This document shows positions 3,203 through 47,587 of a stretch of 64,000 nucleotides of DNA, piece by piece; within the stretch, counting starts at the first letter, position 1, and each line of letters begins with the position of its first letter. The position numbers were made by a program, and so were the translations under genes. The DNA lies in the NCBI GenBank assembly GCA_018303625.1, contig JAGVXV010000010.1:13411-77410 (forward strand). Reading direction: 5' to 3'. Origin of the DNA: Candidatus Woesearchaeota archaeon. GTDB taxonomy: Archaea > Nanobdellota > Nanobdellia > Woesearchaeales > GW2011-AR4. Under the pieces are notes generated by a model. It was not told the DNA's origin, did not search any database, and worked only from the letters and a program-made list of their open reading frames with translations.

Positions 3203-3244
3203 TCAAAACTGGCAATTGCGGACTTAAAAAACAAAAATCATTGG

Positions 3245-13420: not shown

Positions 13421-13421
13421 A

Positions 13422-13823
13422 ATGGTAAGGCCGGAAGGTATAAGATGGGGAATTGCGCACATTTATGCCAGCTATAACAATACTATAATACATATAACGG
13501 ACATAACAGGAACCGAGACAATAAGCAAAAGCTCCGGCGGCCAGGTTGTTAAAAGCCACAGGATGGAAAGCTCGCCGACAGCTGCGATGATTGCGTCTAA
13601 AAAGGCTGCGGAAACAGCGATGGAAAAGGGAATCAGCGGCATACATGTAAAGATAAAGGCGCCCGGAGGCCATAACGGCCCTACAAGCCCGGGTCCTGGC
13701 GCTCAAGCTGCCATAAGGGCTTTGTCGAGAATGGGATTAAGGATAGGCATTATAGAGGAGGTTACGCCTTTGCCTCATGATGGCTGCAGAAAAAAAGGCG
13801 GCAGAAGAGGGAGGCGTGTATAA
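13422..13823 (+). CDS. rps11: 30S ribosomal protein uS11
   Basis: '[24 protein letters not shown]' and '[25 protein letters not shown]' are typical of S11. Confidence 0.9.
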
Positions 13824-13824
13824 A

Positions 13825-14619
13825 ATGGAAGTCAGATCGCTTGAAAACAGGAAGGATGAAAATAAGCTTTCATTTATTTTGAAGGACGGCAATCCGTCTT
13901 ATGCAAATGCTTTGAGAAGGATAATGCTTGAAGAAGTGCCTGTAATGGCAGTGGAAGATGTTGAAATAAGGAAGAACAGCTCGATTTTGTACGATGAAAT
14001 TATTGCGCACAGGCTGGGCCTGATGCCGTTAACCACGGACTTAAAATCATATAACCTGCCGGATAAATGCAAGTGCGAGGGCAAAGGCTGCGCGAGGTGC
14101 CAGGTAAAGCTGACATTGCAGGCCTCAAAAGGCACCGGAGTGGTTTATGCGTCTGAAATCAAAAGCAAAGACTCTGCAATCAAGCCTGTTCACCCTAAAA
14201 TGCCGATTGTAAAGCTGCTGAAAAACCAGCAGCTCGAGCTGGAGGCAACAGCGGTTTTAGGCAGGGGAAAAACGCATGTAAAATGGAGCCCGTGCCTTGT
14301 TTACTACAAGAAAAGGCCAGTCATAGAGATAGGCAATGTAAAAAATCCCGAGGAGGTTGTTGACAAGACCCATGGGAATATTTTTGAGATGAGGAATGGA
14401 AAATTAGAGGTTGTGAAGGAGAATTTATTCAAGTATGACCTAGCAGGCATTGCCGAGGAAGTCTCAAACGGAGAAATAAAGGTTTCTTATGTGGATGATT
14501 ACATTTTCAATGTAGAGTCTTGGGGCCAATTAAGCTGCAAGGAAATTGTGACAAAGGCTATAGACATATTTAACGAGCAGCTTGACGAGTTTGCTGAAGA
14601 GCTGAAAAAGGCAAAATAA
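13825..14619 (+). CDS. rpoD: DNA-directed RNA polymerase subunit D (Rpo3)
   Basis: The internal start 'MEVRSLENRKDENKLSFILKDGNPSYANALRRIMLEEVP' is the RpoD dimerisation domain. A Cys cluster 'CKCEGKGCARC' is present. The ATG is 1 nt after the S11 stop. Confidence 0.85.
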   Translation: MEVRSLENRKDENKLSFILKDGNPSYANALRRIMLEEVPVMAVEDVEIRKNSSILYDEIIAHRLGLMPLTTDLKSYNLPDKCKCEGKGCARCQVKLTLQASKGTGVVYASEIKSKDSAIKPVHPKMPIVKLLKNQQLELEATAVLGRGKTHVKWSPCLVYYKKRPVIEIGNVKNPEEVVDKTHGNIFEMRNGKLEVVKENLFKYDLAGIAEEVSNGEIKVSYVDDYIFNVESWGQLSCKEIVTKAIDIFNEQLDEFAEELKKAK

Positions 14620-26560: not shown

Positions 26561-26698
26561 CTTTTTATCTGTTTTTTGAATGTATTTAAATGTTTGTTAT
26601 AAATCTGAAGTGCCAGATGCGTCATAGTTTTTTGTTGCTGTCGGACAAAACCGCATAAAACAATAAATTTATTAATGATAAATTAAAAAATACATAAT

Positions 26699-27361
26699 AT
26701 GGATGTTTTTGAATGCATAAGGACAAGGCGCTCTGTCAGGAAATTCAAGGACAAGCAGGTTCCATGGGACAACGTAGTTACAATAATGCAGGCCGGCAAA
26801 TACGCGCCTTCTGCAGGGAATTTGCAAAACTGGAAGTTCATAATTGTCAAGAGCGATGCAAAGAGGAAGGCAATCGCAAAAGCCTGCCTTGATCAGGAAT
26901 GGATGGAAACCGCGCCAGTATATATTGTTCTTGTTGGCGAGCCTGAAAAGGCTGAAAGGTACTATGGCGCAAGGGGAAGAAGGCTTTACACAATACAGGC
27001 CATTGCCGCTTCGATACAGAATATGCTGCTTACAGCGCATTCTCTGGGGTTGGGGAGCTGCTGGGTCGGGGCTTTTGACGAAGATGAGATAAGAAGAATT
27101 TTGCTGCTGCCAGAGGTTGTTGATGTTCACGCTGTTGTTGTCATAGGCTATGCGGATGAAAAGCCGGAAATGCCGCCTAAATACAGAATCGAGCATATGA
27201 TGTACTTTGAAAAATGGTGGGGCAGGGTTGAAGGGCCAAAAACCTTTATCGGCTGGTGGAGCCTGTACAATAAAAGGATTGTTGATGAGACAAAAAAGCT
27301 TGCAAAGAAGACTGCGAAAAAGGTAGGGGATAAGGTCAAGGAAAAAATCCAAAAACGATAA
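26699..27361 (+). CDS. Nitroreductase-family flavoprotein with K-rich C-terminal tail
   Basis: 'RRSVRKFKDKQVPWDNVVTIMQAGKYAPSAGNLQNWKFIIV' and 'SCWVGAFDEDEIRRIL' match the nitroreductase fold. The tail is 'KKLAKKTAKKVGDKVKEKIQKR'. Confidence 0.8.
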   Translation: MDVFECIRTRRSVRKFKDKQVPWDNVVTIMQAGKYAPSAGNLQNWKFIIVKSDAKRKAIAKACLDQEWMETAPVYIVLVGEPEKAERYYGARGRRLYTIQAIAASIQNMLLTAHSLGLGSCWVGAFDEDEIRRILLLPEVVDVHAVVVIGYADEKPEMPPKYRIEHMMYFEKWWGRVEGPKTFIGWWSLYNKRIVDETKKLAKKTAKKVGDKVKEKIQKR

Positions 27362-27536
27362 GCTCTTCTTAAAAATAACTTACTTCTTCTTCATATTTTA
27401 AAAAAAAGAAAAAATCCCCTTTCGCAAGGGGATAAAGCCTTCATTGTTAAAACGTTGGGGGTGGTTTTAAAGAATGAAGGCATAGAAAAAATGCCTCATG
27501 TTGCCATAAGGCTCACCACAAAGACTGAAGGGGTGA

Positions 27537-28604
27537 TCATTCAATGATTTCTATGCCAAGCTCTTCGGTAATTTCTTGGACCTCCGCACTTGGTTTTAAG
27601 TGTTCGACTTTGCCCAAAATCCACGGGCTCGTAACACCCGTTATAATTGTCATGACAGTTATCCTTCCTGCCATGTCATTCTGAACACGGGCACCCCAGA
27701 TAACGTTTGCATCCGCATCTAAGCTCTCTGTTACAAGCTCTCCCACGCGGTTTATGTCATCCAGAGTCATATCAGGGCCTCCGCATACATGTATCAAAGC
27801 TCCTGTAGCTCCCCTGTAGTTTATGTCAAGCAGTGGATTTTGCAGCGCTCCTTTAACAGCCTCTTCAACCTTGTTTGTTGTATCTGAAGCTCCAACACCT
27901 ATAGCGGCAACTCCGCCGTTTTTCATTATAGCCCTGACATCCGCATAATCCAGATTAACCAGGGAGGGAATTGCTATTGTTTCTACAATGCCCTTTATCA
28001 TGCTTGCAATCAATTCATTCGCAACTGCAAATGCCTGCTGTATTGGCAAATTGCCTGCGATGGTTACAAGCCTGTTATTGTCAATAACTATCACTGTATC
28101 GGATGTTGTTCTTAATTGCTGCAGCCCGAATTCCGCTTTATCAACTCTGGCCCTTTCAATTTTGAATGGCATTGTCACAGTTCCTATCACTATCGCACCA
28201 GTATCACGCGCAACTTGCGCAACTATCGGCGCTGCTCCGGTTCCGGTGCCTCCTCCCATGCCTGCGCAAACAAAAACCATATCAGAGCCCTTCAAGCATT
28301 CTTTAACTTCCTGCAGGCTCTCTTTTGCAGACTCAGCCCCCTTTTCAGGATATCCTCCACATCCTAATCCTTTTGTAACGCCTTTTCCCAGCAAAAATTT
28401 CCTGTCGGCGCTGATTAAATCCAAATGCTGCTTATCGGTGTTGCAGGCTATAATCTCAGCACCTTTGATTCCTTTGTTATAAAGCCAGCCCACCATGTTG
28501 TTGCCTGAGCCGCCAACACCAATAATTTTTATGTTCGCCTGGCCAACCAATCCCTCATAACTCTTTGTTTCAGCCTTTAGGGCATTCTCCACCAAAAAAT
28601 TCAT
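27537..28604 (-). CDS. ftsZ: Cell division protein FtsZ
   Basis: Tubulin signature 'GGGTGTGAAPIVA', plus 'NTDKQHL' and 'VIDNNRL'. 355 aa. Confidence 0.95.
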   Translation of the reverse strand: MNFLVENALKAETKSYEGLVGQANIKIIGVGGSGNNMVGWLYNKGIKGAEIIACNTDKQHLDLISADRKFLLGKGVTKGLGCGGYPEKGAESAKESLQEVKECLKGSDMVFVCAGMGGGTGTGAAPIVAQVARDTGAIVIGTVTMPFKIERARVDKAEFGLQQLRTTSDTVIVIDNNRLVTIAGNLPIQQAFAVANELIASMIKGIVETIAIPSLVNLDYADVRAIMKNGGVAAIGVGASDTTNKVEEAVKGALQNPLLDINYRGATGALIHVCGGPDMTLDDINRVGELVTESLDADANVIWGARVQNDMAGRITVMTIITGVTSPWILGKVEHLKPSAEVQEITEELGIEIIE

Positions 28605-28800
28605 TTTCTTTTCCCCCTTTTTGTGGTTTTTGGAATATATATCTTAACATAAACATTAGAGTACCAAAATATTTATATTCAAGTTGTTTATATTCCACTC
28701 TCAGAAAAAGCTTAAACGCCAAACAAGCTTTTTAAGTCATTAACAGCCTTATAAGTGCTTAGAACTTATATACGCTTTAAAACACGCCAGTTAAGCACGC

Positions 28801-28852
28801 TTTTTCGCCAAAAAAAGCCTGCTTCATGAGTTTTTCGCCAAAAAAACTCATT
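28801..28852. repeat. Two copies of 16-nt 'TTTTTCGCCAAAAAAA' plus an overlapping palindrome in the ftsZ/dph5 divergent intergenic region
   Basis: The copies are at about 28801-28816 and 28831-28846. 'CATGAGTTTTT cgcc AAAAACTCATt' forms an 11-bp inverted repeat. Confidence 0.4.
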
Positions 28853-28986
28853 ATGACTATTTTTTTAATTTATCTCTAACTGGTTTGTCAGTATTTAAAT
28901 ATTTCTAAAGTATAAAATATATTTTTTAGTATACTAGTTCTCAAAAATGGATAAGATTTTTATAATTTCAGGCATTTCTTCAGCTT

Positions 28987-29745
28987 ATGGCACTTTATCT
29001 AATCGGCATAGGGCTAAATGATGAGAAGGATATCAGCCTAAAAGGCCTGGAACTGATAAAGAAATCAGATTTTGTTTATCTGGAAGCTTACACTTCCAAG
29101 CCGAATGTTCCATTAAATTATCTGGAAAATCTCTACAATAAAAAGATAATTTTAGCTGACAGGAATCTGGTTGAGGTTGAAGCTGAAAAAACTATTTTAA
29201 AGGAAGCAAAATCAAAGAATGTTTCCTTTTTGGTTGCGGGGGATATTTTTGCCGCAACAACACACATTGACTTGTTCTTAAGGGCAAGAAAATCAGGAAT
29301 TGAAGTGAAAGTGGTGCATAACGCCTCAGTGCTTACCGCAGTTGGTGTTACCGGGCTGATGCTTTATAATTTTGGCAAAACGACAAGCATTCCATTGCAC
29401 AACGAGGATATAGAAACCCCTTATGATGTTTTGAAGCTGAACCAGAAAAACAGCATGCATACTTTGTTTATTCTTGACTTGAAGGAAAATGAGAATAGCA
29501 GCTTGACTGTAAATGATGCTATAAGGTATTTGCTGAAAATTGAAATAAAAAGAGGGGAAAGGGTTTTTAGCAATGAGGCCATGTGTGTTGGCTGCGCAAA
29601 GCTTGGCAGCTTAGATCAGATAATAAAAGCAGGAAAAGCCTCGGAGCTGCTGAAGCATAATTTTAAGAATGGCCTGCATTGCCTAATTGTTCCTGCAAAA
29701 AAGCTGCATTTCATTGAGGAAGAGGCTTTGGGGCTTTATAGGTAG
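28987..29745 (+). CDS. dph5: Diphthine synthase (Dph5)
   Basis: 'MALYLIGIGLNDEKDISLKGLE', 'FLVAGDIFAATTH' and 'GLHCLIVP', typical of the tetrapyrrole-methylase-fold diphthine synthase. Confidence 0.85.
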   Translation: MALYLIGIGLNDEKDISLKGLELIKKSDFVYLEAYTSKPNVPLNYLENLYNKKIILADRNLVEVEAEKTILKEAKSKNVSFLVAGDIFAATTHIDLFLRARKSGIEVKVVHNASVLTAVGVTGLMLYNFGKTTSIPLHNEDIETPYDVLKLNQKNSMHTLFILDLKENENSSLTVNDAIRYLLKIEIKRGERVFSNEAMCVGCAKLGSLDQIIKAGKASELLKHNFKNGLHCLIVPAKKLHFIEEEALGLYR

Positions 29746-29800
29746 ATTTCGTTTCTAAATAGGTTAATTTTATAAATTAATTATCATAACGCTGCTTTAC

Positions 29801-29873
29801 AGCCCCGTGGTGTAGCGGTCAAGCATCGTGCCCTTTGGAGGCATGGACGGCAGTTCGAATCTGCCCGGGGCTA
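29801..29873 (+). tRNA. tRNA-Gln (TTG), intronless
   Basis: 73 nt. Acceptor AGCCCCG/CGGGGCT with A73. Anticodon stem GTGCC/GGCAT with loop CTTTGGA. T-arm GGCAG-TTCGAAT-CTGCC. Confidence 0.8.
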
Positions 29874-29933
29874 TTTTTACGAAAACTTTAAATAATAAGT
29901 TCAGTTAGTTATTATATAATTGGGAGTGTTGAT

Positions 29934-30806
29934 ATGGCAATCTTTTATTGGGTTATAGGGGCAGTAGTTATATTTTTCTTCTTTGCGGGGATAAGAATAG
30001 TTAGACCTGTAGAAAGAGGCCTTATTGAGAGGCTTGGAAGATATAAAAGGTTTGCAACGCCTGGATTTAACTGGATTATACCGATAATTGACAGAATGAT
30101 TAAAATCAATATAACTGAAAGAATGGTAAATGCTGAGCCTCAAGAGATTATTACAAAAGACAAGCTTAATGCAAGAGTTGATGCGCAAGTTTACTTCAAA
30201 GTCAAGGACAATGAGAATTCTGTTAAAGACTCGCAATACAATGTTAACAGCTATGAAGACCAGATTGTAAGTCTGGCAAGAACTACATTAAGAAACATAA
30301 TAGGAACTTTATCATTAAATGACGCCAACAGCGGAAGGGACAAAATCAACCAGGAGCTAATGGGCACATTGCTCAAGGAAACAAAAAGCTGGGGGATTGA
30401 TGTTGTAAGAACTGAATTAAAGGAGATTGACCCTCCAAAGGATGTACAGGAAACAATGAACAAGGTTGTAAAGGCAGAGAACGAAAAAATAGCTGCTGTT
30501 GATTATGCAACTGCCACAGAAACAAGAGCCGATGGAGAGAGAAGGGCTGCGATAAAGATGGCTGAAGGAGCTTCAAAGGCTGTTGAGATTGAAGCAAAAG
30601 CAAAGGCCGAAGCTATAAGATTAGTCAACGAGTCAGCGGACAAATACTTCAAAGGCAACGCTCAGTTATTGAAAAAGTATGAAGTGACTGAGGCAAGCCT
30701 GAAAGACAATGCAAAGATCATACTTACAGAGAAAGGCATCCAACCAGTTATTATTTTTGGGGATGAAAAAGTTGTTCCTTTGAATATTAAGAAAGGGAAA
30801 GAGTAG
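29934..30806 (+). CDS. SPFH/band-7 (stomatin/prohibitin-like) membrane protein
   Basis: An N-terminal TM helix, then the SPFH core 'IRIVRPVERGLIERLGRYKRFATPGFNWIIPIIDRM...TKDKLNARVDAQVYFKV'. The C-terminus is a coiled coil. Confidence 0.85.
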   Translation: MAIFYWVIGAVVIFFFFAGIRIVRPVERGLIERLGRYKRFATPGFNWIIPIIDRMIKINITERMVNAEPQEIITKDKLNARVDAQVYFKVKDNENSVKDSQYNVNSYEDQIVSLARTTLRNIIGTLSLNDANSGRDKINQELMGTLLKETKSWGIDVVRTELKEIDPPKDVQETMNKVVKAENEKIAAVDYATATETRADGERRAAIKMAEGASKAVEIEAKAKAEAIRLVNESADKYFKGNAQLLKKYEVTEASLKDNAKIILTEKGIQPVIIFGDEKVVPLNIKKGKE

Positions 30807-31010
30807 AGTTCATTTCAACAAAAACATTTATAAACAACCAAACATTCCAATTTATTGAAAGATAGCGTGGTGAAAGCTCCGCTATACTGGATACAAGAAA
30901 TCTTGTTCTCCAGTTAAATAAATATAATAAATTGCGAGCCAATGAGCGAGCGTAAAATTTGCCGAACGCATATTTAATCTAAAAATAAGCAAGAAAATAA
31001 TTTTCAAAAA

Positions 31011-31466
31011 ATGGCGCGAATGTATTCAAGGAAGAGGGGAAAAAGCGGCTCCAAGAAGCCGATTAAAAAGGCAATGCCCACCTGGCTTAGGTACAAAGCC
31101 AAGGAAATCGAGCTGTTGATAGTGAAATTTGCAAAAGAGGGAAAAAGTGCTTCTGAGATAGGCCTGATTTTGAGGGACAGCTACGGCATTCCTTCTGTGA
31201 AATTGATCTGCGGCAAAACCATAACAAGCGTAATGAAGGAAAAAAACCTGCTGCCTGAAGTGCCTGATGACTTGATAGCCCTGATAAGAAGATCTGTTCT
31301 GATAAGAAAGCACATTGAAGTAAACAAGGAGGACCAAACCGCAAAAAGAGGCCTCACCATAACGGAATCAAAGATAAAGAAGCTTGTGAAATACTATAAG
31401 AGAGAGGGAAAACTGCCATCAGAATGGAAATACGACCCTGCAAGAGCAGGTTTCTTTATGAAATAG
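31011..31466 (+). CDS. rps15: 30S ribosomal protein uS15 (S15P/S13e)
   Basis: 'MARMYSRKRGKSGSKKP...PTWLRY', 'SASEIGLILRDSYGIPSVK' and 'LIRKHIEVNKEDQTAKRGL' are typical of archaeal S15P. Confidence 0.85.
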   Translation: MARMYSRKRGKSGSKKPIKKAMPTWLRYKAKEIELLIVKFAKEGKSASEIGLILRDSYGIPSVKLICGKTITSVMKEKNLLPEVPDDLIALIRRSVLIRKHIEVNKEDQTAKRGLTITESKIKKLVKYYKREGKLPSEWKYDPARAGFFMK

Positions 31467-34179: not shown

Positions 34180-35931
34180 ATGCAATATGGCAAGCTAGTC
34201 GAATTTTACGAGGAACTTGGCAAGACTACAAAAAGGCTGGAAAAAACGCATATAATTTCTGAATTGCTTAAGCAGACTCCCGCTGAGGATTTGCCAGTTA
34301 TAATGCTTCTCCTGGAAGGGCGCCTGTTTCCGAGCTATGATGCCAGGGAAATTGGCGTCGCCTCGAGGATTATTTTAAAGGCAATAAGCGCCGCATCAGG
34401 GATTGAAGCCGGCAGGATAGAGAAAGAATGGAAAAAAACAGGGGATTTGGGCCTGGTTGCTGAAAATCTGATAAAGGCAAAGAAGCAAGCGACTTTGCAC
34501 AGCCAGGAATTAACTGTAAAAAAGGTTTTTTTGAATCTCAGGAAGCTTGCCGAGCTTGAAGGCTCTGGAACTGTTGAAAGAAAAATTCAATTAATTTCCG
34601 AGCTATTGACATCGGCAAAGCCAAAGGAGGCAAAGTACATAGTAAGGACAATCTTGCAGGTTTTAAGGGTGGGTGTTGGGAGCGGCTCTGTAAGGGACGC
34701 CATAGTATGGGCGTTTTTTTCTGGTGAGATAAATTTAAGGTATAATAAAGAAGAAAACAGCATGGAAATAGGAAACAGGGAAGAATACAAAAGGCACATT
34801 GACGCTGTGCAAAAAGCATTTGATGCCACGAATGACTTTGCTCTGGTTGCAGAGGCTGCCAAAACAAAAGGCCTTAGCGGCCTGAACAGCATCGGCCTCT
34901 TAGTCGGAATTCCGATAAAGGTCATGCTCGCATTGAAAGTCGATACTGCCGAGGAAGGCTTTGAGAGAGTCGGGAAGCCTGCTGAGCTGGAATTCAAGTA
35001 TGACGGCTTCAGGATCCAGGCGCACAAGAAAAACAACGAGATAAAGCTGTTTACAAGGCGCCTGGAGAATGTTACAAACCAGTTTCCTGACGTTGCCGAA
35101 TACATAAAAAAGCACGTGAAAGGAAAAGAGTTCATCATTGACAGCGAAGCTGTCGGCTACAGCAACAAGACAGGAAGGTACCTTCCTTTTCAAAGCATCT
35201 CCCAGAGGATAAAAAGGAAGTATGATATTGAAAAAATGTCAAAAGAGTTTCCGGTTGAGCTGAATGTTTTTGACATCATCTATCATGACGGAAAAAATTA
35301 CCTCAATGAGCCCTTTGAAAGCAGAAGAAAGCTGCTTGAAGGGATTGTAAGCCAAGAGAAGAAAAAAATCGTGCTGGCAAAAAGCTTGATTGCATCCAAT
35401 GCAAAGGAAGTTAAAAAGTTCTATGAGGAGGCCATTAAGCTTGGGAACGAGGGATTGATGCTCAAGGCATTGAATGCTCCTTACAAGCCCGGCGCCAGAG
35501 TCGGTTATATGGTGAAATACAAGCCTGCAAAGGAAACATTTGACCTGGCTATAATAGCAGCTGAATGGGGCGAGGGCAAAAGGGCTAAATGGCTCAGCAG
35601 CTATACAATTGCGTGCACTGACAACGGCAATTTTTTGGAAATCGGCAAGGCAAGCACAGGCCTTAAAGAAAAAGATGAAGAAGGCCTTAGCTTTAATCAG
35701 ATGACAAAGCTGCTCAAGCCTTTAACTTTATCAGAAAAGGGCAAGGAAGTTGCAGTAAAGCCTTCTATAGTTATAGAAGTCGGCTATGAAGAAATACAAA
35801 AAAGCCCCACTTACAGCTCGGGTTTTGCATTGCGCTTTCCAAGAGTAATAAAGCTAAGAGATGATAAAGGCCCTGAAGATGCGACAACATTGGCCATGAT
35901 TAAAGATTGCTACAATAAGCAGAAGAAGTAG
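34180..35931 (+). CDS. lig: ATP-dependent DNA ligase
   Basis: 583 aa with the adenylation motif 'EFKYDGFRIQAHK' (KxDG), plus 'EGLMLK' and a C-terminal OB domain. The N-terminal DNA-binding domain is typical of archaeal LigA. Confidence 0.95.
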   Translation: MQYGKLVEFYEELGKTTKRLEKTHIISELLKQTPAEDLPVIMLLLEGRLFPSYDAREIGVASRIILKAISAASGIEAGRIEKEWKKTGDLGLVAENLIKAKKQATLHSQELTVKKVFLNLRKLAELEGSGTVERKIQLISELLTSAKPKEAKYIVRTILQVLRVGVGSGSVRDAIVWAFFSGEINLRYNKEENSMEIGNREEYKRHIDAVQKAFDATNDFALVAEAAKTKGLSGLNSIGLLVGIPIKVMLALKVDTAEEGFERVGKPAELEFKYDGFRIQAHKKNNEIKLFTRRLENVTNQFPDVAEYIKKHVKGKEFIIDSEAVGYSNKTGRYLPFQSISQRIKRKYDIEKMSKEFPVELNVFDIIYHDGKNYLNEPFESRRKLLEGIVSQEKKKIVLAKSLIASNAKEVKKFYEEAIKLGNEGLMLKALNAPYKPGARVGYMVKYKPAKETFDLAIIAAEWGEGKRAKWLSSYTIACTDNGNFLEIGKASTGLKEKDEEGLSFNQMTKLLKPLTLSEKGKEVAVKPSIVIEVGYEEIQKSPTYSSGFALRFPRVIKLRDDKGPEDATTLAMIKDCYNKQKK

Positions 35932-36075
35932 AAATGCCCCTAAGGGAAGATAAACAAATTTGTTAAAAATTGTGGTTCCTATTTCTCAATAGAATATAAA
36001 ACTATTTGAAGAATCTCAAATCAGCATTTTAGGTTAGATGGGATATCCGTTGAAGTGTTTGTATCCCAATATATC

Positions 36076-36822: not shown

Positions 36823-36905
36823 TTTTATTGAAATTTTATATGCTTATGATATTATTGGCTGAAATCTTTATAAATATTTCCATTTGAATTTAGATATTTT
36901 TAAGT

Positions 36906-36982
36906 ATGCCCCTACTGGGTAGCGGAAATCATAGATTTCCTGAACCCATCGGGTCATTCGTTTTGCTCATGCCCCTACTGGG
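36906..36982. repeat. Direct repeat of the tRNA-Arg 3'-terminal 14 nt (att-like), enclosing a short hairpin
   Basis: 'ATGCCCCTACTGGG' occurs at about 36906-36919 and again at about 36969-36982, which is the actual 3' end of tRNA-Arg on the minus strand. The roughly 50-nt spacer contains the hairpin GGAAATC-ATA-GATTTCC. Confidence 0.45.
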
Positions 36983-37042
36983 AATCGAACCCAGGTCTTA
37001 AGGTCCGCAACCTCATATTCTGATCCACTAAACTATAGGGGC
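36970..37042 (-). tRNA. tRNA-Arg (GCG), intronless
   Basis: 73 nt on the minus strand. Acceptor GCCCCTA/TAGGGGC. Anticodon stem TGAGG/CCTTA with loop TTGCGGA. T-arm CTGGG-TTCGATT-CCCAG. Confidence 0.8.
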
Positions 37043-37158
37043 GCAACATAACTAATTCAGGATGGTTTATAAACATTATTGCGCATAAATAATTAATTAC
37101 TTTATAATAGTGACAAAATAGAAAGATTTAAATATGAGTATGATGGAATATTATTAGT

Positions 37159-38214
37159 ATGGTAGAGGTAGGAAGAATAGTCAGAGATTTGGAAACTGTG
37201 AGAGAGCATTTACTTAGAACTGGAGCTAGGCCAGAAGTTGTTGACGCATTTAACAGAACTTTTCTACTTGACACTTTAAACACAGATGTCCTATCCAGAT
37301 TTGCATTTTATGGGCTACTGAGACGAACTATAGAAAATTATATTGAAGGGAATTTAATAATAGAACGCCAGGATAGAAGAAAACTGAATGGTGGCGATAG
37401 AGTCAATCTTAGGGGTAAAGCCAAAGAAGATAGAAGAGCCGAAAGAATAGAGGTTACAAGTGACATGATAGATGTAGCTATGTTTGATTTAGGCCGTTTT
37501 AAATTTTATAATGACGAATTTGGGGAATTAGTTGGAGATTTGCTTCTAGCAGTTGTAGGCGGAATGATTAGCAAGAACCTAAGGCCGTATGACGCCACCA
37601 CAGCACCAGTGGATTATGAATCTCTTTTGAGAAACATAGGCAGTGGGGTTGCAAGTAGGGAAAAAGGTGATGAATATAGGGCAATGATAGTCGGGACAAG
37701 ACAGCATAAGACAATAATTAACCGTATTCTTAAAAATGTCAGAAAGGAAGCCATAGAAGAGGCTTATAAACAAGTTAAAGGAAATCCAGAATTGATTAAT
37801 TTGTTTAGAGGTGATTCTTACGCAGAAAAAGAAAGTAACCTAGAGAAGTTTTACAGAGCACAAAAGACTATGCCAATAGTGTTAAGGGTAGGGTATGCCA
37901 TACTAAAAGACATTGAAAAAGAAGTTGAAAGAACTGAGCGCGCCAGAGACCCTGAGAACCTAGCTACCCGCTTGATAGTGGCAAGCACGGATACACAAGA
38001 AGCTGTTAAGATGAGCGGTGATTTGGGAAAAGTTTATTCTTATCAAGATTTAAAGAATGGAAAAATTGGGGGTAAAACGACAAGCCACATGCCTCCAAAT
38101 TTAGTTGAGATGGTTCAAAGGTATGGTGGTGAAGTTTTTCACCGTAGAGTTCTTGATGAAATTCGAGCCTCTCATCCTGACGCTTACAGATTGTTAACAA
38201 GAAGAACTGGTTGA
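37159..38214 (+). CDS. hypothetical protein (351 aa), Arg-rich, atypical codon usage
   Basis: A long, clean ORF adjacent to tRNA-Arg. Its codons are strongly AT3-biased (aga, tta, gta, aca) in contrast to core genes. No enzymatic motif is recognised. It ends with a Walker-A-like 'GKIGGKTTS' near the C-terminus. Confidence 0.4.
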   Translation: MVEVGRIVRDLETVREHLLRTGARPEVVDAFNRTFLLDTLNTDVLSRFAFYGLLRRTIENYIEGNLIIERQDRRKLNGGDRVNLRGKAKEDRRAERIEVTSDMIDVAMFDLGRFKFYNDEFGELVGDLLLAVVGGMISKNLRPYDATTAPVDYESLLRNIGSGVASREKGDEYRAMIVGTRQHKTIINRILKNVRKEAIEEAYKQVKGNPELINLFRGDSYAEKESNLEKFYRAQKTMPIVLRVGYAILKDIEKEVERTERARDPENLATRLIVASTDTQEAVKMSGDLGKVYSYQDLKNGKIGGKTTSHMPPNLVEMVQRYGGEVFHRRVLDEIRASHPDAYRLLTRRTG

Positions 38215-38236: not shown

Positions 38237-39787
38237 TCAATAATCCACCAGGCTGATCTGCCCTTTCCTTTTTCCAGATGGAATTTCTTTTATTTCCTCT
38301 CCTACCTGCTTCTTCACATTCAAAGCGACTTTTTCTCCCAGAATCTGCACTAACTTTAAAAAATCTGCCTTCTTAACATCCCCGATATCCTTGATCTTGT
38401 TGTTGTACAATTTCCTTGCCCTTACTCTTCCAATCTGCTCAAGCCTCAATAAGGGCAGCAATTCCTCTCTGACGCCATACTTCATTCTCAGCCTCAGCTT
38501 CGCAATTTCCCTGATCAGGCTTTGGTAATGCAAAATTCTTGATATTTCCTCAGAGGAGTAAAGCAGCCAGTCGGCATTGTCCAGCTTGACCCTTAATTCG
38601 CCAGGCCTTAGGTTGTACTGCTCGAGCAGAAACTCCTCGTCTTTCTCATCGGTCCAGTCGATAAACATCAATGCTGTTTTAATGCTGTTCAAAAAGTCAT
38701 CATATTCGGGCTCGTACATGGAAGGCTCATGCTCAAGCAGAAAACTTTCGTGCTTTATCAATTCCTCCTGGATTTTCTCATTTTCTTTTGCGCCAACCCT
38801 GAGCAAAGGCCTCATTTCAAGTGTATGGCATGCCATCTGCAAAAGGGAAAATTCATTTATTTTTTTGTCAGAGGCATTCCTCAGGCAGCTTATGATGAAA
38901 AAAGCAGTCAAGGGGTCAATGTAAAGCTCTGCAACTCTTTTGCCCATTACTGTCGCCCTTATCTCCTCATTTTCAAATTTATCAGCATCCCTGAATTCAT
39001 TTTTCTTCCTGGCTATAAATTCCCATTCTTCCAGCAAATCCAGCATTTTTGATATTATCATTTCAAGCTTTCCAAAATCCCTGAACTGGTAGGCCCAGAA
39101 TGTCCTCTCAAAAAAATCCATTATCTGGCTTTTGTTTCTTGTGAAATCAGCCGCAATCAGGCTTAATAGGTATGTCCTTAACACAGGCTCGACAGCAAGC
39201 TTCGAGTAAATATCCTCAGGCTCGCCCAAAATGTACATCTCGTAAATCTTGTTTTTTTCACCTTCGCTGCCTGCAATTGCAATTGCCTCTCCTGTTTTGT
39301 CAAATTTAGGCCTGCCAGCCCTTCCTGACTGCTGCAGATATTCCAGAACAGGTATCCATGCCAATCCTCTTGGGCTGTATCTCCTCAAATCCTTAATAAT
39401 GACCCTGAATGCCGGAAGATCAACTCCATACGCCAATGTTGGGGTTGCGCAGATAATCTTGATTAAGCCGTTCCTGAAGTTATTTTCAATCAGCTCCCTT
39501 TGCTTTGAAACCAGGCCGGCATGGTGAAAAGCAATTCCTTTTTTTATGCAGTAAGCCAGCCTTTCGCACTGCTTTGTAGGCCTAGAAAGGGCGTTAAGTA
39601 TGCCGTCAGAAATTCTCTCTAAATCCGCATTGCCCACCTTTATGCTCTTGGCTATTTCCTCAGCGGCTTTTTCAGCGCTCCTCTTGGTATTTGCAAAAAC
39701 TATAGCCTGCTTTCCCAGATTAATCGTGTCCAAAGCCAGGTTTGTAACAGAATTATCGCTATGATTGGGTATTTTTTTATTGCCCAT
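38237..39787 (-). CDS. Hel308/Ski2-like DNA helicase, C-terminal portion only (RecA2, WH, ratchet and HLH domains); N-terminal RecA1 domain absent
   Basis: It begins at the RecA2 domain ('GKQAIVFANTKRSAEKAA', 'AFHHAGL', 'TPTLAYGVDLPA', 'QQSGRAGR' motif VI). The Hel308-type WH/ratchet/HLH C-terminus continues to 'KRKGQISLVDY'. A TAG stop lies 5 codons upstream of the ATG. No Walker A/DEAH is present. Confidence 0.7.
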   Translation of the reverse strand: MGNKKIPNHSDNSVTNLALDTINLGKQAIVFANTKRSAEKAAEEIAKSIKVGNADLERISDGILNALSRPTKQCERLAYCIKKGIAFHHAGLVSKQRELIENNFRNGLIKIICATPTLAYGVDLPAFRVIIKDLRRYSPRGLAWIPVLEYLQQSGRAGRPKFDKTGEAIAIAGSEGEKNKIYEMYILGEPEDIYSKLAVEPVLRTYLLSLIAADFTRNKSQIMDFFERTFWAYQFRDFGKLEMIISKMLDLLEEWEFIARKKNEFRDADKFENEEIRATVMGKRVAELYIDPLTAFFIISCLRNASDKKINEFSLLQMACHTLEMRPLLRVGAKENEKIQEELIKHESFLLEHEPSMYEPEYDDFLNSIKTALMFIDWTDEKDEEFLLEQYNLRPGELRVKLDNADWLLYSSEEISRILHYQSLIREIAKLRLRMKYGVREELLPLLRLEQIGRVRARKLYNNKIKDIGDVKKADFLKLVQILGEKVALNVKKQVGEEIKEIPSGKRKGQISLVDY

Positions 39788-39896: not shown

Positions 39897-41237
39897 TTAA
39901 GAAGTTGGGTCTGATACTCTACCTATAAACAGAATTGTATTATTTTCACGTTCTTGAATTATGAAGATAAAAGGATGGTCTGCACGAAAAATTGGTGTTG
40001 GTGGTGGGATCGATATAATTCCAATAACAACTGCTGTTGCAGCTGCTGCTTCTGTGCCTTCCTCATTCACATCAACAAATGCCTGATGGATAACATCGCT
40101 AATAACAAGGTCTTTTTTTCCATCAATTCCAGAAAAATCCGCTTCTAGTGGATCAAATGATGATAAGATTCCCATTTCTTTAAGATTTTTAGAGAGAAAA
40201 TATTTACTATCAAAAGTAAACCGAGGTATAAAAACATCAACGTTTTGTTCTTTCAACTTGGTAACCCATTCAGTAAATTTAACTGTGGAAAGAGAGCTTT
40301 CAACTTTTTCTAAGTCATCATTTTTTGGAAGTAGGATTATCATCGATAAATTGTTTCCTTCATACAGCAATTCAAGAATCTGCGATTCATCTGTTTCTGC
40401 ATAATTGAATCTTGACTCTGTATACCTCATAATTGGCACTATTACAGTTTTTTCATTATTCACCTTAAATTCTTCATCCTTGGTTTCTTCTTTATCAAAT
40501 TGTACTAGCCAGTTTGCTTTAAAGTAAATTGCATTTGTAAGTACCAATCTTGTCGCGGCATCAAGAACGCCTACTGGAATTAAATCCTTAATCTTATCAT
40601 TAGTTTTATCTTCTACCCATTTATTTATTGTCTGCCGAGCTTCTTCAGTCGCTTTTATGAAATCAACAAGATTAGCGCTTGCATCATAATATTTTTGCAA
40701 TACATTAACATATTCATCTAAAATTCCAAAATCTTTTTGTACCCAAAATGCATTTGCAGTGCTAAGATTATATTTACTGTCCTTGCTATTTATTTTACTG
40801 TTAAGTTCTACATATGACAATCTAAGCAAGCCATAATCCTCTGGAAAATGCAATGTTCTTGCAATCTCATTTGCAGTCTCTCCACGTGCTCCTTCATATG
40901 TCATTGCAAGTGCTGCAGTAATGCTCCATGGAGAGAAAAAGATATTCCCTTCTTCCTCACTTAATTTTGAATAAAGATCAAAAGCAAATTGATTATTAGA
41001 GTCTGAAATGCCACTAAAATTTACTGTAATTGCTTTGTTATCTTTCTTTGCGGGTAATTCATGCTCTATAGATTGATTTTTAGCAGCGGATTCACGTTTC
41101 TCTAGAGGAGCAATTTCTTCATCTTTTTCTGGCAAATTATTAAATATCGCCAAATTAAGAACTACTAGAATACTAACTATAACGATAACTATCCATAAAA
41201 TAGTTAAAATCGTTTTCTTATCCATTTCCTCCAACAT
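39897..41237 (-). CDS. Serpin (serine protease inhibitor), membrane-anchored/secreted
   Basis: An N-terminal TM is followed by a serpin fold. It has the hinge 'NEEGTEAAAATAVVIGIISIPPP', the canonical EEGTEAAAAT inhibitory hinge, and the C-terminal 'FRADHPFIFIIQE...ILFIGRV' serpin signature. Codon usage is AT3-rich. Confidence 0.85.
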   Translation of the reverse strand: MLEEMDKKTILTILWIVIVIVSILVVLNLAIFNNLPEKDEEIAPLEKRESAAKNQSIEHELPAKKDNKAITVNFSGISDSNNQFAFDLYSKLSEEEGNIFFSPWSITAALAMTYEGARGETANEIARTLHFPEDYGLLRLSYVELNSKINSKDSKYNLSTANAFWVQKDFGILDEYVNVLQKYYDASANLVDFIKATEEARQTINKWVEDKTNDKIKDLIPVGVLDAATRLVLTNAIYFKANWLVQFDKEETKDEEFKVNNEKTVIVPIMRYTESRFNYAETDESQILELLYEGNNLSMIILLPKNDDLEKVESSLSTVKFTEWVTKLKEQNVDVFIPRFTFDSKYFLSKNLKEMGILSSFDPLEADFSGIDGKKDLVISDVIHQAFVDVNEEGTEAAAATAVVIGIISIPPPTPIFRADHPFIFIIQERENNTILFIGRVSDPTS

Positions 41238-44362: not shown

Positions 44363-44490
44363 TGGGCCTGCCAGGATTTGAACCTGGGACCATTCTCGGC
44401 TTATTGGCTCTCGATGTCTAACAGCTGGTTATCAGTTTCGCCGCCTCTTCTGGAGACTCGAGCATTCTAACCAGACTGAACTACAGGCCC
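44363..44490 (-). tRNA. tRNA, 128 nt, with a roughly 36-nt anticodon-loop intron and extra nucleotides in the variable region; anticodon probably CTC (Glu) but uncertain
   Basis: Minus strand. Acceptor GGGCCTG/CAGGCCC with A73. An intact D-arm GTTC-AGTCTGGTTA-GAAT. Anticodon stem CTCGA/TCGAG enclosing 43 nt. T-arm CCAGG-TTCAAAT-CCTGG preceded by 22 nt. Confidence 0.55.
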
Positions 44491-44533: not shown

Positions 44534-44637
44534 CGCCCCTGACCAGACTCGAACTGGTGATCTTACGGTTACAGCGCAAAGCTAACAGCCGTACGCTCTA
44601 CCTATTGCTCCACTCATAGTGTCTAAGCTACAGGGGC
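44534..44637 (-). tRNA. tRNA-Asn (GTT) with two introns (D-loop about 20 nt; anticodon loop about 13 nt)
   Basis: Minus strand. Acceptor GCCCCTG/CAGGGGC with G73. D-stem GCTT/GAGC with an interrupted D-loop 'AG|intron|GGTA'. Anticodon stem TACGG/CCGTA with loop CTGTTA|intron|A. T-arm ACCAG-TTCGAGT-CTGGT. Confidence 0.6.
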
Positions 44638-44746: not shown

Positions 44747-45160
44747 TCAATTTATTTCAATAACTTTTACCTTGAAATTCAAGTCTTTTCCCGCCAATGG
44801 ATGATTTAAATCTATTAAGACGGCATCTTCCCTTACTTCCTTGATTACAGAAGGCATTCTTTCACCCTGGGGCCCTTTCAGGAGCAGATGGCCGCCAACT
44901 TGAACTTCCGGAGGAAGCTTGCTTCTTGGAACAGAAACAACAAGCCTTTCATCCCTTTCCCCGTAAGCGTCTTTTGAGCTTATCTTTATTGTTTTTTCCT
45001 CATTTAGATTCATTTCTTTTACTCCATTTTCAAAGCCCGGAATAACCTGGTTATTACCTATTGTGAATTCCAATGGCTCTCTCCCGTCAGAGCTGTCAAA
45101 TACAGTCCCGTCATTCAATGTTCCTGTGTAATGGACTTTTACTTTGTCTCCTAGGTTCAT
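44747..45160 (-). CDS. FKBP-type peptidyl-prolyl cis-trans isomerase (SlyD-like, with IF insertion)
   Basis: 'VKVHYTGTLNDGTVFDSS...EFTIGNNQVIPGFENGVKEM' is the FKBP core. The C-terminal insert-in-flap is typical of archaeal short FKBP. Confidence 0.85.
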   Translation of the reverse strand: MNLGDKVKVHYTGTLNDGTVFDSSDGREPLEFTIGNNQVIPGFENGVKEMNLNEEKTIKISSKDAYGERDERLVVSVPRSKLPPEVQVGGHLLLKGPQGERMPSVIKEVREDAVLIDLNHPLAGKDLNFKVKVIEIN

Positions 45161-45290
45161 TTTAGGGAGAAATTATGAAATGATATTTAAGGGTTGTGGG
45201 TTAAGGCTCTGAATTTTTATTCAGCTCTGCAAGAATTAATTATATAATTTAAAACTAAAATTTAAATAGTACCATGCTTAATACTTTATT

Positions 45291-45548
45291 ATGTACGAGA
45301 TTTATACTGCAAATAGCAGAACAGAAAAAAGGCTCAAAGATCATATAAAAGAAAGGCAGGATATTCTCAAAAAGCTTCAAAGATTAAAGCTTTCTCCAAG
45401 AACGGAAATAGGTGCGCATCCCCTGCATGGAAAGCTGAGCGGAAAATGGAGCTGCTGGCTTGGCTCCAATATCAGGATGATTTACAGCATTGATGACAAT
45501 AACAGGCAGATAATCGTAGAAGCAATAGGAACCCATCAGGTTTATTAA
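45291..45548 (+). CDS. YoeB/Txe-like (RelE/ParE superfamily) toxin
   Basis: 85 aa. 'GAHPLHGKLSGKWSCWLGSNIRMIYSIDDNNRQIIVEAIGTHQVY' matches the YoeB C-terminal catalytic region (LSGxWSRRI...RLVY...H.Y). Confidence 0.65.
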   Translation: MYEIYTANSRTEKRLKDHIKERQDILKKLQRLKLSPRTEIGAHPLHGKLSGKWSCWLGSNIRMIYSIDDNNRQIIVEAIGTHQVY

Positions 45549-45556
45549 ACTTTCAG

Positions 45557-45694
45557 CTTTTTTATTTTGCCCCGGGCAATGTTCTTTTCGCTCTCCAAAA
45601 TCTGTTTCATCATATCAGAATTTTGGAGTATCTCTATTGTCTCTTTCATGCCTTCATACTCTTTTTTTGATATGAGTATCATGTCTTGCTTCAT
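45557..45694 (-). pseudogene. YefM/Phd-like antitoxin fragment (C-terminal half only), convergent to the toxin; coordinates approximate (within a few nt)
   Basis: Minus-strand 45-aa ORF 'MKQDMILISKKEYEGMKETIEILQNSDMMKQILESEKNIARGKIKKLKV'. It aligns with the C-terminal half of YefM ('[39 protein letters not shown]'). An in-frame TAA lies just upstream, so the N-terminal DNA-binding half is absent. Confidence 0.45.
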
Positions 45695-45837
45695 AAGGAA
45701 ATCATAATATACCTGCCTTTATATAATTTTCGCATGTTTAATAGCCACGCCTTTTCCGAATTTGATTATTTGTGGGGTTAAAAATTTATGGGTTAGTATT
45801 TACCCCACTGGTGCGCTACGCAACACCAGTGGAAAGC

Positions 45838-46038
45838 TCAGCTTTTAATAATGAATGTATCACAACAATTTTTTTCAATAATACCTAATTTTTGGTTGCA
45901 GTCATTACAACAAATTATTTTAAGTTTAGCAGGTCCTCCTATGTTCATAGGTATGAAGTGATCATAAGTCCATTTATTATCATTAAAGTTTTTATCGCAA
46001 TATACGCAATAGTATTCCTTAATATTTTTTGAAACCAT
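45838..46038 (-). CDS. Small HNH-family endonuclease-like zinc-finger protein
   Basis: 'YCVYCDKNFNDNKWTYDHFIPMNIGG...CCNDCNQKLG' has the CxxC...DH...N...CxxC arrangement of HNH nucleases. About 66 aa from the internal ATG. Confidence 0.5.
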   Translation of the reverse strand: MVSKNIKEYYCVYCDKNFNDNKWTYDHFIPMNIGGPAKLKIICCNDCNQKLGIIEKNCCDTFIIKS

Positions 46039-46048
46039 ATTATTTTTC

Positions 46049-47587
46049 CTAAACCTCCACTTCCCTCTTAACCACAACCTTCCCAGTAATTGACCTCAAC
46101 ATATGCCCAGTTATCTCTAAATCATAGAATTTCTTTAGCTCTAATCTTCCCTTAACCCCAACAATTATCGGATATGTTCCAAACTGCCTGCAGAATGTTG
46201 TGTTGCCGTCATAGATTTCCGCATAACAATTGGTTAAAACTGTTCCGTTTGGAATTACTCTCTGCAGCATTGGCCAGTCTATTTTCTGCCTTATTTCATT
46301 GCGCCATTTCCAGTATAATTTTTTATTTTTTCTTAAAAACTTGTCCCTGCCTTTGTTATATAATGAAGTGCCTTCAAATATTGCAACCTGCCTTATGTTA
46401 ATCCTCCTTAGCATCAATCCTTCATCATAAATTCTTTTCAACCATTTCATGTTCTCTTCATGGGTTTTCTTTGTTTCATTGCGAAGCCCGAAAATTATAT
46501 TGACTCCGGGCAAAAACCTGGGCATTCCGTCAGGGCCTCTTTCAGCCCCGTATTTGTTCAGTATCTTAACCGCTTCATAAGCAATCTGAGGAGGAGTATT
46601 CAATGTATTTGCCTTCACAACCTCTAAATCAAAAGACTCAACTCCAAAAGCGGCAATATTTCCCGAAGTGCAGTACTTAACAATTGCTTTTGTTATTTCA
46701 AAATCACTTTTCTTGTCCATAACAACCTTGACAGGATTTACATTATCAATATGCAAAACCTTAATATCAGGGCATTTGCCATTTATTTCTTTCAGTAATT
46801 CTGCGGCATAAGGCAAAGTATAGAAGCAGGTCTGCTTTCCAAGCCTAAAATAACGAGCGCCAAGATTGTAAAACTCAATAACCTCCTGCAAAACATCCTC
46901 TTTATCGCGAAACTCAACTCTGTTTTTCAGAGGCTCTGTGCAAAAGCTGCACTTTCCTATGTCGCAGCCGTGCCCAGTCTCAATCTCTATCATGCGATGA
47001 TCAGGAATCTGCTTTATGATTGAAGCCCCTTTTATTGAATGATTCTTCACATCAGAATATTTGAAATTAAACATTGAATAATCAACTTTGTCAAAAGCGC
47101 CTAAATCAGCTTTTTCAAAAAACTTGCCGCCAAAAAGCTGCGTTCCGAAAACAGCAGGTCCTGTCAAAATTTTCTCGCATCTTAAATCCTTAATCATTGG
47201 AATTATCTCATTTAGGGTGCCAGGCACTGCAGAAAGATATTTTCCCGGAACATGAACACCAAGGACAACAATCAAGGTACCTGTTTCAGCAAGAATTTTC
47301 CCAATATTTTTATAATTAATTGTCAGGTTATAAGTTGTAATGTCTGTTTTCTGCGACGGCCTTATTGCTCTTATTTCTGAATTGTTTTTTTTCCACAACC
47401 TCAAATCATCAATAGTTAAATAACAAGCATCTTCATTCAGGTATCCTGCTATGTACCTAGGATACGTGCCAAGATAAGGCGGAACTCCAAGCCCGGCCGG
47501 CTCATCAGTATAGCAGTCAAGTATAGTATATCCCATAGCTTGGAGTAATGCTTTTTCATTTAAAAAGGTATTTGAAAAAGAAAACAT
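46049..47587 (-). CDS. Radical SAM domain protein with N-terminal extension and C-terminal TRAM-like region
   Basis: 512 aa. It has a radical SAM cluster 'IETGHGCDIGKCSFC' (Cx4Cx2C). The C-terminal 'GVKGRLELKKFYDLEITGHMLRSITGKVVVKREVEV' resembles a TRAM/OB domain. Confidence 0.65.
   Translation of the reverse strand: MFSFSNTFLNEKALLQAMGYTILDCYTDEPAGLGVPPYLGTYPRYIAGYLNEDACYLTIDDLRLWKKNNSEIRAIRPSQKTDITTYNLTINYKNIGKILAETGTLIVVLGVHVPGKYLSAVPGTLNEIIPMIKDLRCEKILTGPAVFGTQLFGGKFFEKADLGAFDKVDYSMFNFKYSDVKNHSIKGASIIKQIPDHRMIEIETGHGCDIGKCSFCTEPLKNRVEFRDKEDVLQEVIEFYNLGARYFRLGKQTCFYTLPYAAELLKEINGKCPDIKVLHIDNVNPVKVVMDKKSDFEITKAIVKYCTSGNIAAFGVESFDLEVVKANTLNTPPQIAYEAVKILNKYGAERGPDGMPRFLPGVNIIFGLRNETKKTHEENMKWLKRIYDEGLMLRRINIRQVAIFEGTSLYNKGRDKFLRKNKKLYWKWRNEIRQKIDWPMLQRVIPNGTVLTNCYAEIYDGNTTFCRQFGTYPIIVGVKGRLELKKFYDLEITGHMLRSITGKVVVKREVEV

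Follow-up and report, generated by a model that had tools for sequence, protein, structure and literature searches.

Repeated 3′ ends of a tRNA-Arg gene as probable scars of successive insertions at an integration hotspot of a Woesearchaeota-like archaeon

Integrative elements that enter transfer RNA (tRNA) genes by means of tyrosine recombinases, such as the archaeal SSV- and pNOB8-type elements and bacterial genomic islands, are among the described systems closest to a locus that we analysed in a 64-kb stretch of archaeal DNA (64,000 nucleotides (nt) of contig JAGVXV010000010.1, hereafter the window). At this locus the 3′ end of an intact tRNA-Arg gene is present in three copies, the gene's own end (A1), an exact duplicate (A2) and a degenerate distal copy (A3), which are on balance probably the scars of at least two successive insertions of attachment-site (att) type, now decayed, at a tRNA-Arg hotspot. 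The identity blocks of att sites usually run from the T-loop or T-stem to the end of the tRNA, as these repeats do. With the tyrosine-recombinase elements the locus shares a same-strand downstream repeat reaching from the T-loop or T-stem to the 3′ end, an intact tRNA, cargo that differs among relatives, repeat-free sites and a distant copy that is more degenerate. It is unlike them in having neither an integrase nor a fragment of one, in a cargo of one gene (about 0.96 kb) or of 49 nt, and in that no free element carrying attP was found.

REP/BIME elements are bacterial extragenic palindromic elements that make no target duplication. They resemble the present case in the reuse of short palindromic modules in intergenic clusters, here behind genes and within the introns and trailers of tRNAs, but here tRNA ends are duplicated and no RAYT or Y1 transposase was seen; the likeness is no more than a resemblance. 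In the tycheposon islands of Prochlorococcus newer insertions push older ones away, scattering partial tRNAs and element remnants in the island (bioRxiv 10.1101/2020.12.28.424599). Variable genes are gathered beside a tRNA of a streamlined genome in both cases; tycheposons however are 10-20 kb long with integrase and replication modules, whereas our locus has no hallmark gene, intervals that are mostly <200 nt and an archaeal host. The casposons of Aciduliprofundum boonei, with their Cas1 casposase, produce a 15-bp duplication at the 3′ end of tRNA-Pro that requires the T-loop (PMC5137440). They are alike in the 14-15-bp direct repeat at a tRNA 3′ end, in the T-loop palindrome of the target and, in principle, in the possibility of tandem polar insertion. 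They are unlike in that the A. boonei duplication overlaps the tRNA by 5 bp while 13 of our 14 nt lie within it (PMC5137440), that we found no terminal inverted repeats, Cas1 or PolB, and that the repeats of related loci range from 14 to 43 nt. In the tRNA disruption model for Caldiarchaeum subterraneum (PMC3293823) inserted DNA likewise parts a tRNA fragment from an intact tRNA and is linked to intron gain, for which the tRNA-Gln genes of two relatives described below may be compared; there, however, the insert is 1.8 kb long, encodes a recombinase and parts off a 5′ fragment, whereas here 3′ ends, mostly tiny inserts and no recombinase are found (PMC3293823).

A1 and A2 are the only matches in the 64 kb to the plus-strand 14-mer ATGCCCCTACTGGG; both are exact, and allowing up to two mismatches adds no other. 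On the tRNA strand the 14-mer reads CCCAGTAGGGGCAT and comprises the 3′ strand of the T-stem, the 3′ strand of the acceptor stem, the discriminator A and one more nucleotide. At two mismatches the repeat lengthens to 19 nt and enters the T-loop; A2 has CCCAG at the site where the related loci L096 and L010 (relatives are given L numbers throughout) read CCCGG. A sensitive scan with 31 nt of the tRNA-Arg 3′ end located A3, TCCCTTAGGGGCAT, which matches ungapped at 11 of 14 positions, is exact over the last 9 nt and lies 2 nt off the stop codon of a DNA ligase gene, about 1 kb downstream of tRNA-Arg. The 9-mer TAGGGGCAT has just three occurrences in the window, namely the three copies, all on the same strand, and our estimate from shuffle rates is that a match like A3 would arise by chance within the 1 kb separating tRNA and ligase with a probability of about 0.006-0.03. 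Direct same-strand repeats of the 3′ part of a tRNA thus stand downstream of an intact gene, as expected of an att footprint, two of them exact and one at 11/14. The remaining three annotated tRNAs of the window have no 3′-end duplicate. An independent metagenome scaffold (L084), ungapped and 99.97% identical to the window, spans the locus with the same structure, so the repeat is not an assembly artefact, and similar structures occur in many metagenome-assembled genomes (MAGs) of different studies.

Comparison with the same site in relatives, identified below by the identity of their ligase, revealed both repeat-free arrangements and other inserts. L010 (63%) has the order ligase, 160 nt, tRNA-Arg(GCG), a response-regulator GGDEF gene and helicase, and lacks the repeat as well as the gene of 248 amino acids (aa) that lies between A2 and A3 in the window. 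In L097/L098 (79%) the ligase is followed by a 65-aa membrane open reading frame (ORF), tRNA-Arg and directly by the helicase, with no repeat, spacer or 248-aa gene. The DNA between the repeats is therefore missing from these orthologous sites, the slot in L097/L098 holding the 65-aa ORF. In L096 (80%), whose tRNA-Arg is 93% identical to that of the window and alignable together with about 90 nt upstream at 78% identity, the ligase stop is directly followed by 15 nt, TTCCCGGTAGGGGCA, that repeat the end of the L096 tRNA-Arg exactly, and then by a rubrerythrin gene, 131 nt and the intact tRNA-Arg, so that exact 15-nt repeats bracket the rubrerythrin gene. A 12-nt remnant, CCAGTAGGGGCG, abuts the ligase stop of L095 (81%) and precedes an unrelated gene. 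The same core has thus been reused by other inserts at the orthologous site. Since a tRNA-Arg 3′ fragment stands at the ligase stop in three members of the clade (window, L096 and L095), each with different DNA before the tRNA body, their sequences suggest an ancestor in which the tRNA-Arg end abutted the ligase gene. A preliminary description of this DNA had read the 14-nt repeat as the footprint of integration at a tRNA and had proposed to look for an empty site in related genomes; the repeat-free sites and the other cargo of L096 bear this out. Between L028 and L029 (80-88% DNA identity) homology ends 11 nt past the tRNA-Arg 3′ end and resumes about 1-1.6 kb further on. The near-identical tRNAs of L081 and L083 have no duplicate, and a metagenome scan with the 3′ 25-mer of tRNA-Arg returned three contigs, none of them with a duplicate.

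Further relatives show other DNA near these genes. Directly downstream of tRNA-Arg(GCG) in L026, whose ligase is Woesearchaeota-like, we identified a bacterial-type sigma-70 ORF with regions 1.2, 2, 3 and 4 (12880-14295, minus strand), an unexpected cargo at the same tRNA-Arg hotspot. In L099 (2698-3576) and L100 (362-1240), both with 80% ligase identity, a block encoding a protein with a Bro-N domain, typical of viruses and mobile elements, replaces the genes upstream of the ligase. L101 contains, after a small membrane ORF downstream of the ligase (around 3180-3240), a 43-nt sequence GCCCCTC...CTGCAGGGGCG with acceptor-stem-like pairing and a CTGCGCA loop, for which no tRNA was called and which may be an internally deleted remnant of tRNA-Arg.

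The arrangement of the copies is polar. A3 is degenerate and distal while A2 is exact, and in a tRNA-Gln array of L029 the most distal copy is likewise degenerate; an accretion from the tRNA outwards would explain why the oldest copy would be the most distal, the most degenerate and the one beside the ancestral flank. Foreign DNA would have inserted at least twice into the segment of the tRNA-Arg gene that runs from the T-loop to the 3′ end, each insertion supplying or regenerating an intact 3′ end at the tRNA body and displacing the prior end outward, which is how integrative elements with tRNA targets behave when attP recombines with attB. The A2-A3 segment, now with the 248-aa gene, would stem from the older event, and the younger one, if we infer the order correctly, would have left just the 49-nt hairpin spacer between A1 and A2 as the rest of a larger element. 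The joints would be the work of a site-specific, tyrosine-type recombinase which, not being encoded at the locus, was either lost or acted in trans. Successive insertion accounts for the three copies, the repeat-free sites, the alternative cargo of L096 and the missing integrase, each of which, like the polarity, was observed directly.

The spacer between A1 and A2 is absent from all related tRNA-Arg loci, as judged by alignment to L081, L083, L026, L029 and L015 as well as L096 and L097, and has no second copy anywhere in the window or the fetched loci. The 7-bp hairpin that the preliminary description had placed between the repeats, some 50 nt apart, is perfect, and the distance between the two exact copies is 49 nt. 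The hairpin belongs to a motif, AAATC-NNN-GATTT, that the window matches once. Related loci totalling about 1.19 Mb have 25 matches, where about 5 are expected from the window shuffle rate, scaled up, and the motif is present in tRNA trailers, downstream of protein genes and, in L010 tRNA-Gln and L067 tRNA-Ile, within canonical introns. The spacer also contains a heptamer, TGGGTTC, that together with A2 forms a T-arm-like stem whose loop holds the 7-bp hairpin. The heptamer may be a copy of the T-arm, which its sequence suggests at most, a gapped alignment test being non-significant. Local alignments of the spacer to the window tRNA and to the intron-containing L081, L083 and L026 gave no significant match (p = 0.18-0.33), and we rejected an origin of the spacer from a decayed 3′ half of a tRNA or from what was left of an intron plus exon; after these alignments the heptamer is the only remaining hint of a tRNA origin.

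The pattern extends to other tRNAs of related archaea. We surveyed 94 non-redundant sources (1.32 Mb, 78 tRNAs called by ARAGORN) for cases in which the 3′-terminal 12-mer of a tRNA recurs, with at most one mismatch, within 1.5 kb downstream on the same strand. Such a duplicate was found at 12 of the 78 tRNAs (about 15%, roughly one in seven), at a distance of 51-190 nt in 11 of them and of 702 nt in one (L096), while none of the 78 had a 3′-end copy upstream or in reverse complement. A copy of the 5′ end lies upstream of four tRNAs of the survey. The repeats are 14-43 nt in length (14 in the window, 15 in L096 and 18-43 at the other tRNAs), start in the T-arm, mostly in the T-loop, and end 1-19 nt beyond the gene. 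The spacers are chains of hairpins grouped in families: those behind tRNA-Arg and tRNA-Asn of L028 are 86% identical across 78 nt, and modules are common to L017, L028, L029 and L070. The intron-less tRNA-Gln of L029 (6300-6512, minus strand) has three 3′-end copies in an array of end, spacer 1, end, spacer 2 and degenerate end, followed by the ancestral flank as in L028, whereas its L028 orthologue (5374-5510, minus strand) has no duplicates but is interrupted by two non-canonical introns, the first following roughly position 9 and the second within the T-loop. The structure of tRNA genes in this pair of genomes is evolving very fast. In L057 tRNA ends together with their trailers recur in tandem as exact units of 92 and 96 nt. 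The searchable literature yielded no account of short duplications at the tRNA ends of DPANN archaea, and these recurrent micro-insertions of hairpin modules at the tRNA ends of the lineage, without integrase, are an unusual variant.

The genes of the locus are ordered ligase (plus strand), 248-aa gene (minus), A2, spacer, tRNA-Arg (minus), a 351-aa gene (37159-38214, plus) and a Hel308-like helicase gene (minus). A2 and A3 bracket the 248-aa gene, the probable cargo and the only gene of the approximately 0.96-kb segment, while A1 and A2 bracket just the spacer. The two exact copies, which the preliminary description had read as attL/attR, enclose 49 nt and no element, and the third copy had been missed. 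Homologues of the 248-aa protein number just 12 (47-64% identity) and are encoded beside TrkA, PMSR or HEPN genes, none of them beside a tRNA; the gene is missing from the same slot in L010, L096 and L097 and has the worst synonymous-codon fit of the window (z = -2.6). For the 351-aa gene, also tied to the integration by the preliminary description, we found no 5′-end or 3′-end tRNA repeat that brackets it, so the repeats are uninformative on this gene and we rejected it as cargo. Its slot varies, with unrelated genes in relatives. The protein has no homologue in a search of 5.8 billion proteins, no similarity to the product of the 125-aa gene in the same slot of L096 and a match at motif level only to the GGDEF protein of L010 (E = 0.016). 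The first half of a GGDEF domain is recognisable in this ORFan at residues 100-146, with a RYGGEVF motif far downstream near the C-terminus, an arrangement suggestive of a GGDEF-like domain divided by a long insertion. The gene in this slot of L010 encodes a normal response-regulator GGDEF protein. Both flanking genes had been described as rich in A and T at third codon positions. Their G+C content at these positions (GC3) is indeed low, 0.30 for the 248-aa gene (z = -1.6, sixth lowest) and 0.29 for the 351-aa gene (z = -1.7, fourth lowest) against a mean of 0.44 (sd 0.083) over 58 window ORFs. Both values lie within the range of the window, four other ORFs being equal or lower.

Several observations weigh against successive att-type insertions. 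A3 is identical at only 11 of 14 positions and was discovered post hoc. The 63-bp unit of A2 and spacer is too small to integrate as a circle alone, and therefore the A1-A2 interval requires a further deletion or another mechanism. Random decay of kb-sized elements predicts something other than the 51-190 nt at which 11 of the 12 duplicates lie, with the caveat that MAG contigs may break at intact elements. Searches with Pfam, PHROGs, NCBIfam and PADLOC identified no integrase, transposase or Cas1 among the ORFs of 25.6-48.2 kb, all of which were tested, nor in the tested ORFs of 0.2-8.7, 19.5-20.4 and 48.2-64 kb (10.0-19.5 and 21.1-25.6 kb were unscanned). Integrase fragments were not found either, the intergenic space at the locus being too small for one, so that a decayed site without integrase, as it had been described, is a fair characterisation. 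Two scans of viral contigs with 20-mers covering the core gave zero matches, and no free element bearing it was found.

Part of this evidence would fit a miniature, non-autonomous hairpin element inserted at the T-loop or 3′ end of the tRNA by a staggered cut, through a casposase/Cas1-like enzyme or another transposase, with the repeat as its target-site duplication. We regard this as possible but unlikely. Homologous spacers stand behind different tRNAs of one genome (L028 Arg and Asn) with repeats that match locally, the L029 array combines different spacers with a degenerate terminal repeat, the spacing is narrow in 11 of the 12 cases, and the 14-15 nt repeated here and in L096 recall the 15-bp casposon duplication at the tRNA-Pro 3′ end (PMC5137440). 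However, terminal inverted repeats were not seen by eye on the 49-nt spacer, the A2-A3 segment or the L096 cassette, repeats of 14-43 nt are unlike one fixed stagger, and no Cas1, PolB or transposase was matched among the window ORFs tested. Moreover the window spacer shares nothing significant with any other spacer save the hairpin motif, and comparable hairpin arrays occur with no tRNA-end repeat (L028 17956-18027, and L023 after a protein-coding gene). A more general proposal, speculative and in our opinion rather doubtful, is that the tRNA genes of Woesearchaeota and Nanoarchaeota are targets of undescribed miniature elements built of hairpin modules that duplicate the tRNA terminus, the 63-bp unit of the window being itself an insertion of this kind, with no large element behind it. 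The modules may then be the same as in some tRNA introns, with insertion between T-loop and 3′ end or, symmetrically, at the 5′ end. The arrangement end-spacer-end may be a neutral intermediate, from which loss of the proximal copy may lead to non-canonical introns and rearrangement to fragmented tRNA genes.

Gene-sized bracketed inserts such as the rubrerythrin gene of L096 and the 248-aa gene cannot be the product of slippage, and the spacer has no local source sequence. For these reasons, and since both the polarity (12 copies downstream, none upstream or inverted) and the enrichment at tRNAs exceed general slippage, a local duplication with no mobile DNA involved appears improbable, whether by replication slippage, by template switching at the palindromes of T-arm and spacer hairpins or by homology-facilitated illegitimate recombination with an incoming allele, selection retaining only products with an intact tRNA. 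The exact tandem units of L057 and the palindrome-rich spacers would agree with it, and that surviving repeats always cover the gene end would need no cause beyond selection for an intact tRNA. Spacer and A2 could in principle act as an alternative 3′ exon, the T-loop being interrupted by an intron-like insert, fold into a tRNA-like minihelix, or signal processing or termination of the tRNA transcript, but that they form a functional RNA of any such kind is still less probable, to a degree that leaves it little weight. A predicted fold of the 163-nt transcript does pair the 5′ acceptor strand with A2 in place of A1 (z-score -2.86), and the T-arm-like stem of A2 and TGGGTTC, the T-loop intron of L028 tRNA-Gln where L029 has end duplications and the hairpin motif in canonical introns point the same way. 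The tRNA-Arg however is complete with neither spacer nor splicing (66 bits), the unit is not in L096, L097 or L010 nor at the near-identical tRNAs of L081 and L083, and the inverted copy needed for a minihelix is non-significant in the window (p = 0.38). Such an inverted copy of the tRNA end at the spacer start was rejected as a general rule, being non-significant in five other loci as well; it is significant in L049, L057 (twice) and L017. A chance repeat, for which only its shortness speaks, has a negligible probability. Shuffled windows average 0.31 matches at two mismatches, zero exact copies being expected, and the repeat falls precisely on the tRNA 3′ end in a pattern that recurs, in the correct polarity only, at 12 of 78 tRNAs. 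Successive att-type insertions thus remain our preferred explanation of the three copies.

The window encodes an archaeal RNase P RNA and a signal recognition particle RNA as well as the ATP-dependent ligase, which finds its best reference-genome matches in MAGs of Woesearchaeota and Nanoarchaeia (up to 70% identity), metagenomic relatives reaching 79-81%. The host is a Woesearchaeota-like DPANN archaeon. The features of the locus are collected in Table 1; the two TTTATAAA boxes are read as putative promoter elements of the tRNA and the 248-aa gene.

Table 1. Features of the tRNA-Arg locus (window coordinates)
Feature	Position	Strand	Basis or remark
ATP-dependent DNA ligase, conserved anchor bounding the variable slot	34180..35931	+	Pfam; synteny
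Copy A3, degenerate TCCCTTAGGGGCAT, 11/14 ungapped, last 9 nt exact	35934..35947	-	sensitive scan
Predicted membrane/secreted protein, 248 aa	36076..36822	-	CARDB E = 2.6e-4, weaker than Pfam cut-off
TTTATAAA, putative TATA-like box of the 248-aa gene, ~32 nt downstream of A2	36867..36874	-	read from sequence
Copy A2, exact duplicate of tRNA-Arg 3′ end, 63 nt downstream of A1	36906..36919	-	exact match
Spacer B, 49 nt, A1 to A2	36920..36968	-	not in any related tRNA-Arg locus
Perfect 7-bp hairpin GGAAATC-ATA-GATTTCC, inside spacer B	36924..36940	.	AAATC-NNN-GATTT motif member
TGGGTTC (tRNA strand), candidate copy of T-stem 5′ strand plus T-loop start	36942..36948	-	repeat family D6, inverted repeat I3
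Copy A1, own 3′ end of tRNA-Arg, 13 nt plus one trailing T	36969..36982	-	exact 14-mer match
tRNA-Arg(GCG), intact, intron-less, no encoded CCA	36970..37042	-	ARAGORN; Rfam RF00005, 66.2 bits
TTTATAAA, putative TATA-box-like promoter element, 24-31 nt upstream of tRNA-Arg 5′ end	37066..37073	-	read from sequence

Several features elsewhere in the window concern neighbouring genes and other variable slots. The Hel308-like helicase gene (38237-39787, minus strand) encodes 516 aa that cover positions 222-710 of the 739-position Hel308 profile, with the first RecA-like domain missing. Truncation of this gene by an insertion was rejected, relatives having the same form of 500-522 aa lacking RecA1, and it looks like a conserved split or truncated form of the lineage and not like local damage. 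A full-length serpin gene (39897-41237, minus strand), with a GC3 of 0.22 the second-lowest of the window, separates the helicase gene from a PKD-domain gene, the two being immediate neighbours in L096 and L097, and is probably a recent acquisition. An Asn-like tRNA with anticodon GTT (44534-44637, minus strand), with insertions in the D-loop region and after the anticodon, was undetected by ARAGORN and Rfam and aligns with the second tRNA of L097 (14018-14132), and the tRNA at 44363-44490 has about 50 nt extra in comparison with the intron-less tRNA-Ile(GAT) of L097. Between this tRNA pair and a radical-SAM gene the region 44747-46077 holds an FKBP isomerase gene, a RelE-like toxin ORF (45291-45548) and a 79-aa HNH-endonuclease-like ORF (45838-46077). 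The corresponding gap in L097 is just tens of nt, so this region is another variable slot beside tRNAs.

Further from the locus, TTTTTCGCCAAAAAAA is present twice (28801-28816 and 28831-28846), 30 nt apart, between ftsZ and a diphthine-synthase-like methylase gene. A paired TTTTTTGGCGAAAA with the same 30-nt spacing is kept in at least seven other Woesearchaeota loci (L002-L005, L008, L009 and L070), and the pair is possibly a conserved regulatory or origin-type element. The region 26655-31466 (nitroreductase, ftsZ, methylase and S15) is inverted relative to the ligase in comparison with L095-L097, and two additional genes, for an SPFH protein and an 868-aa alpha/beta-hydrolase, precede the ligase in the window, a difference that looks like the outcome of an inversion together with insertions.

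Taken alone, the tRNA-Arg locus is an ordinary tRNA integration scar that marks a point of gene uptake in a streamlined DPANN genome, of a surface protein here and of rubrerythrin in a sister lineage. Such duplicates, together with tRNAs of several introns, mislead tRNA annotation, one tRNA of the window having been missed by both detectors. The wider pattern is less ordinary, combining end duplicates 50-200 nt off, reused hairpin modules and the lack of a recombinase. If it should prove to reflect a dedicated miniature element or an enzyme acting in trans, it would represent a new route of tRNA-gene remodelling and would suggest, step by step and in testable form, how the non-canonical introns and split tRNA genes characteristic of these archaea could arise.

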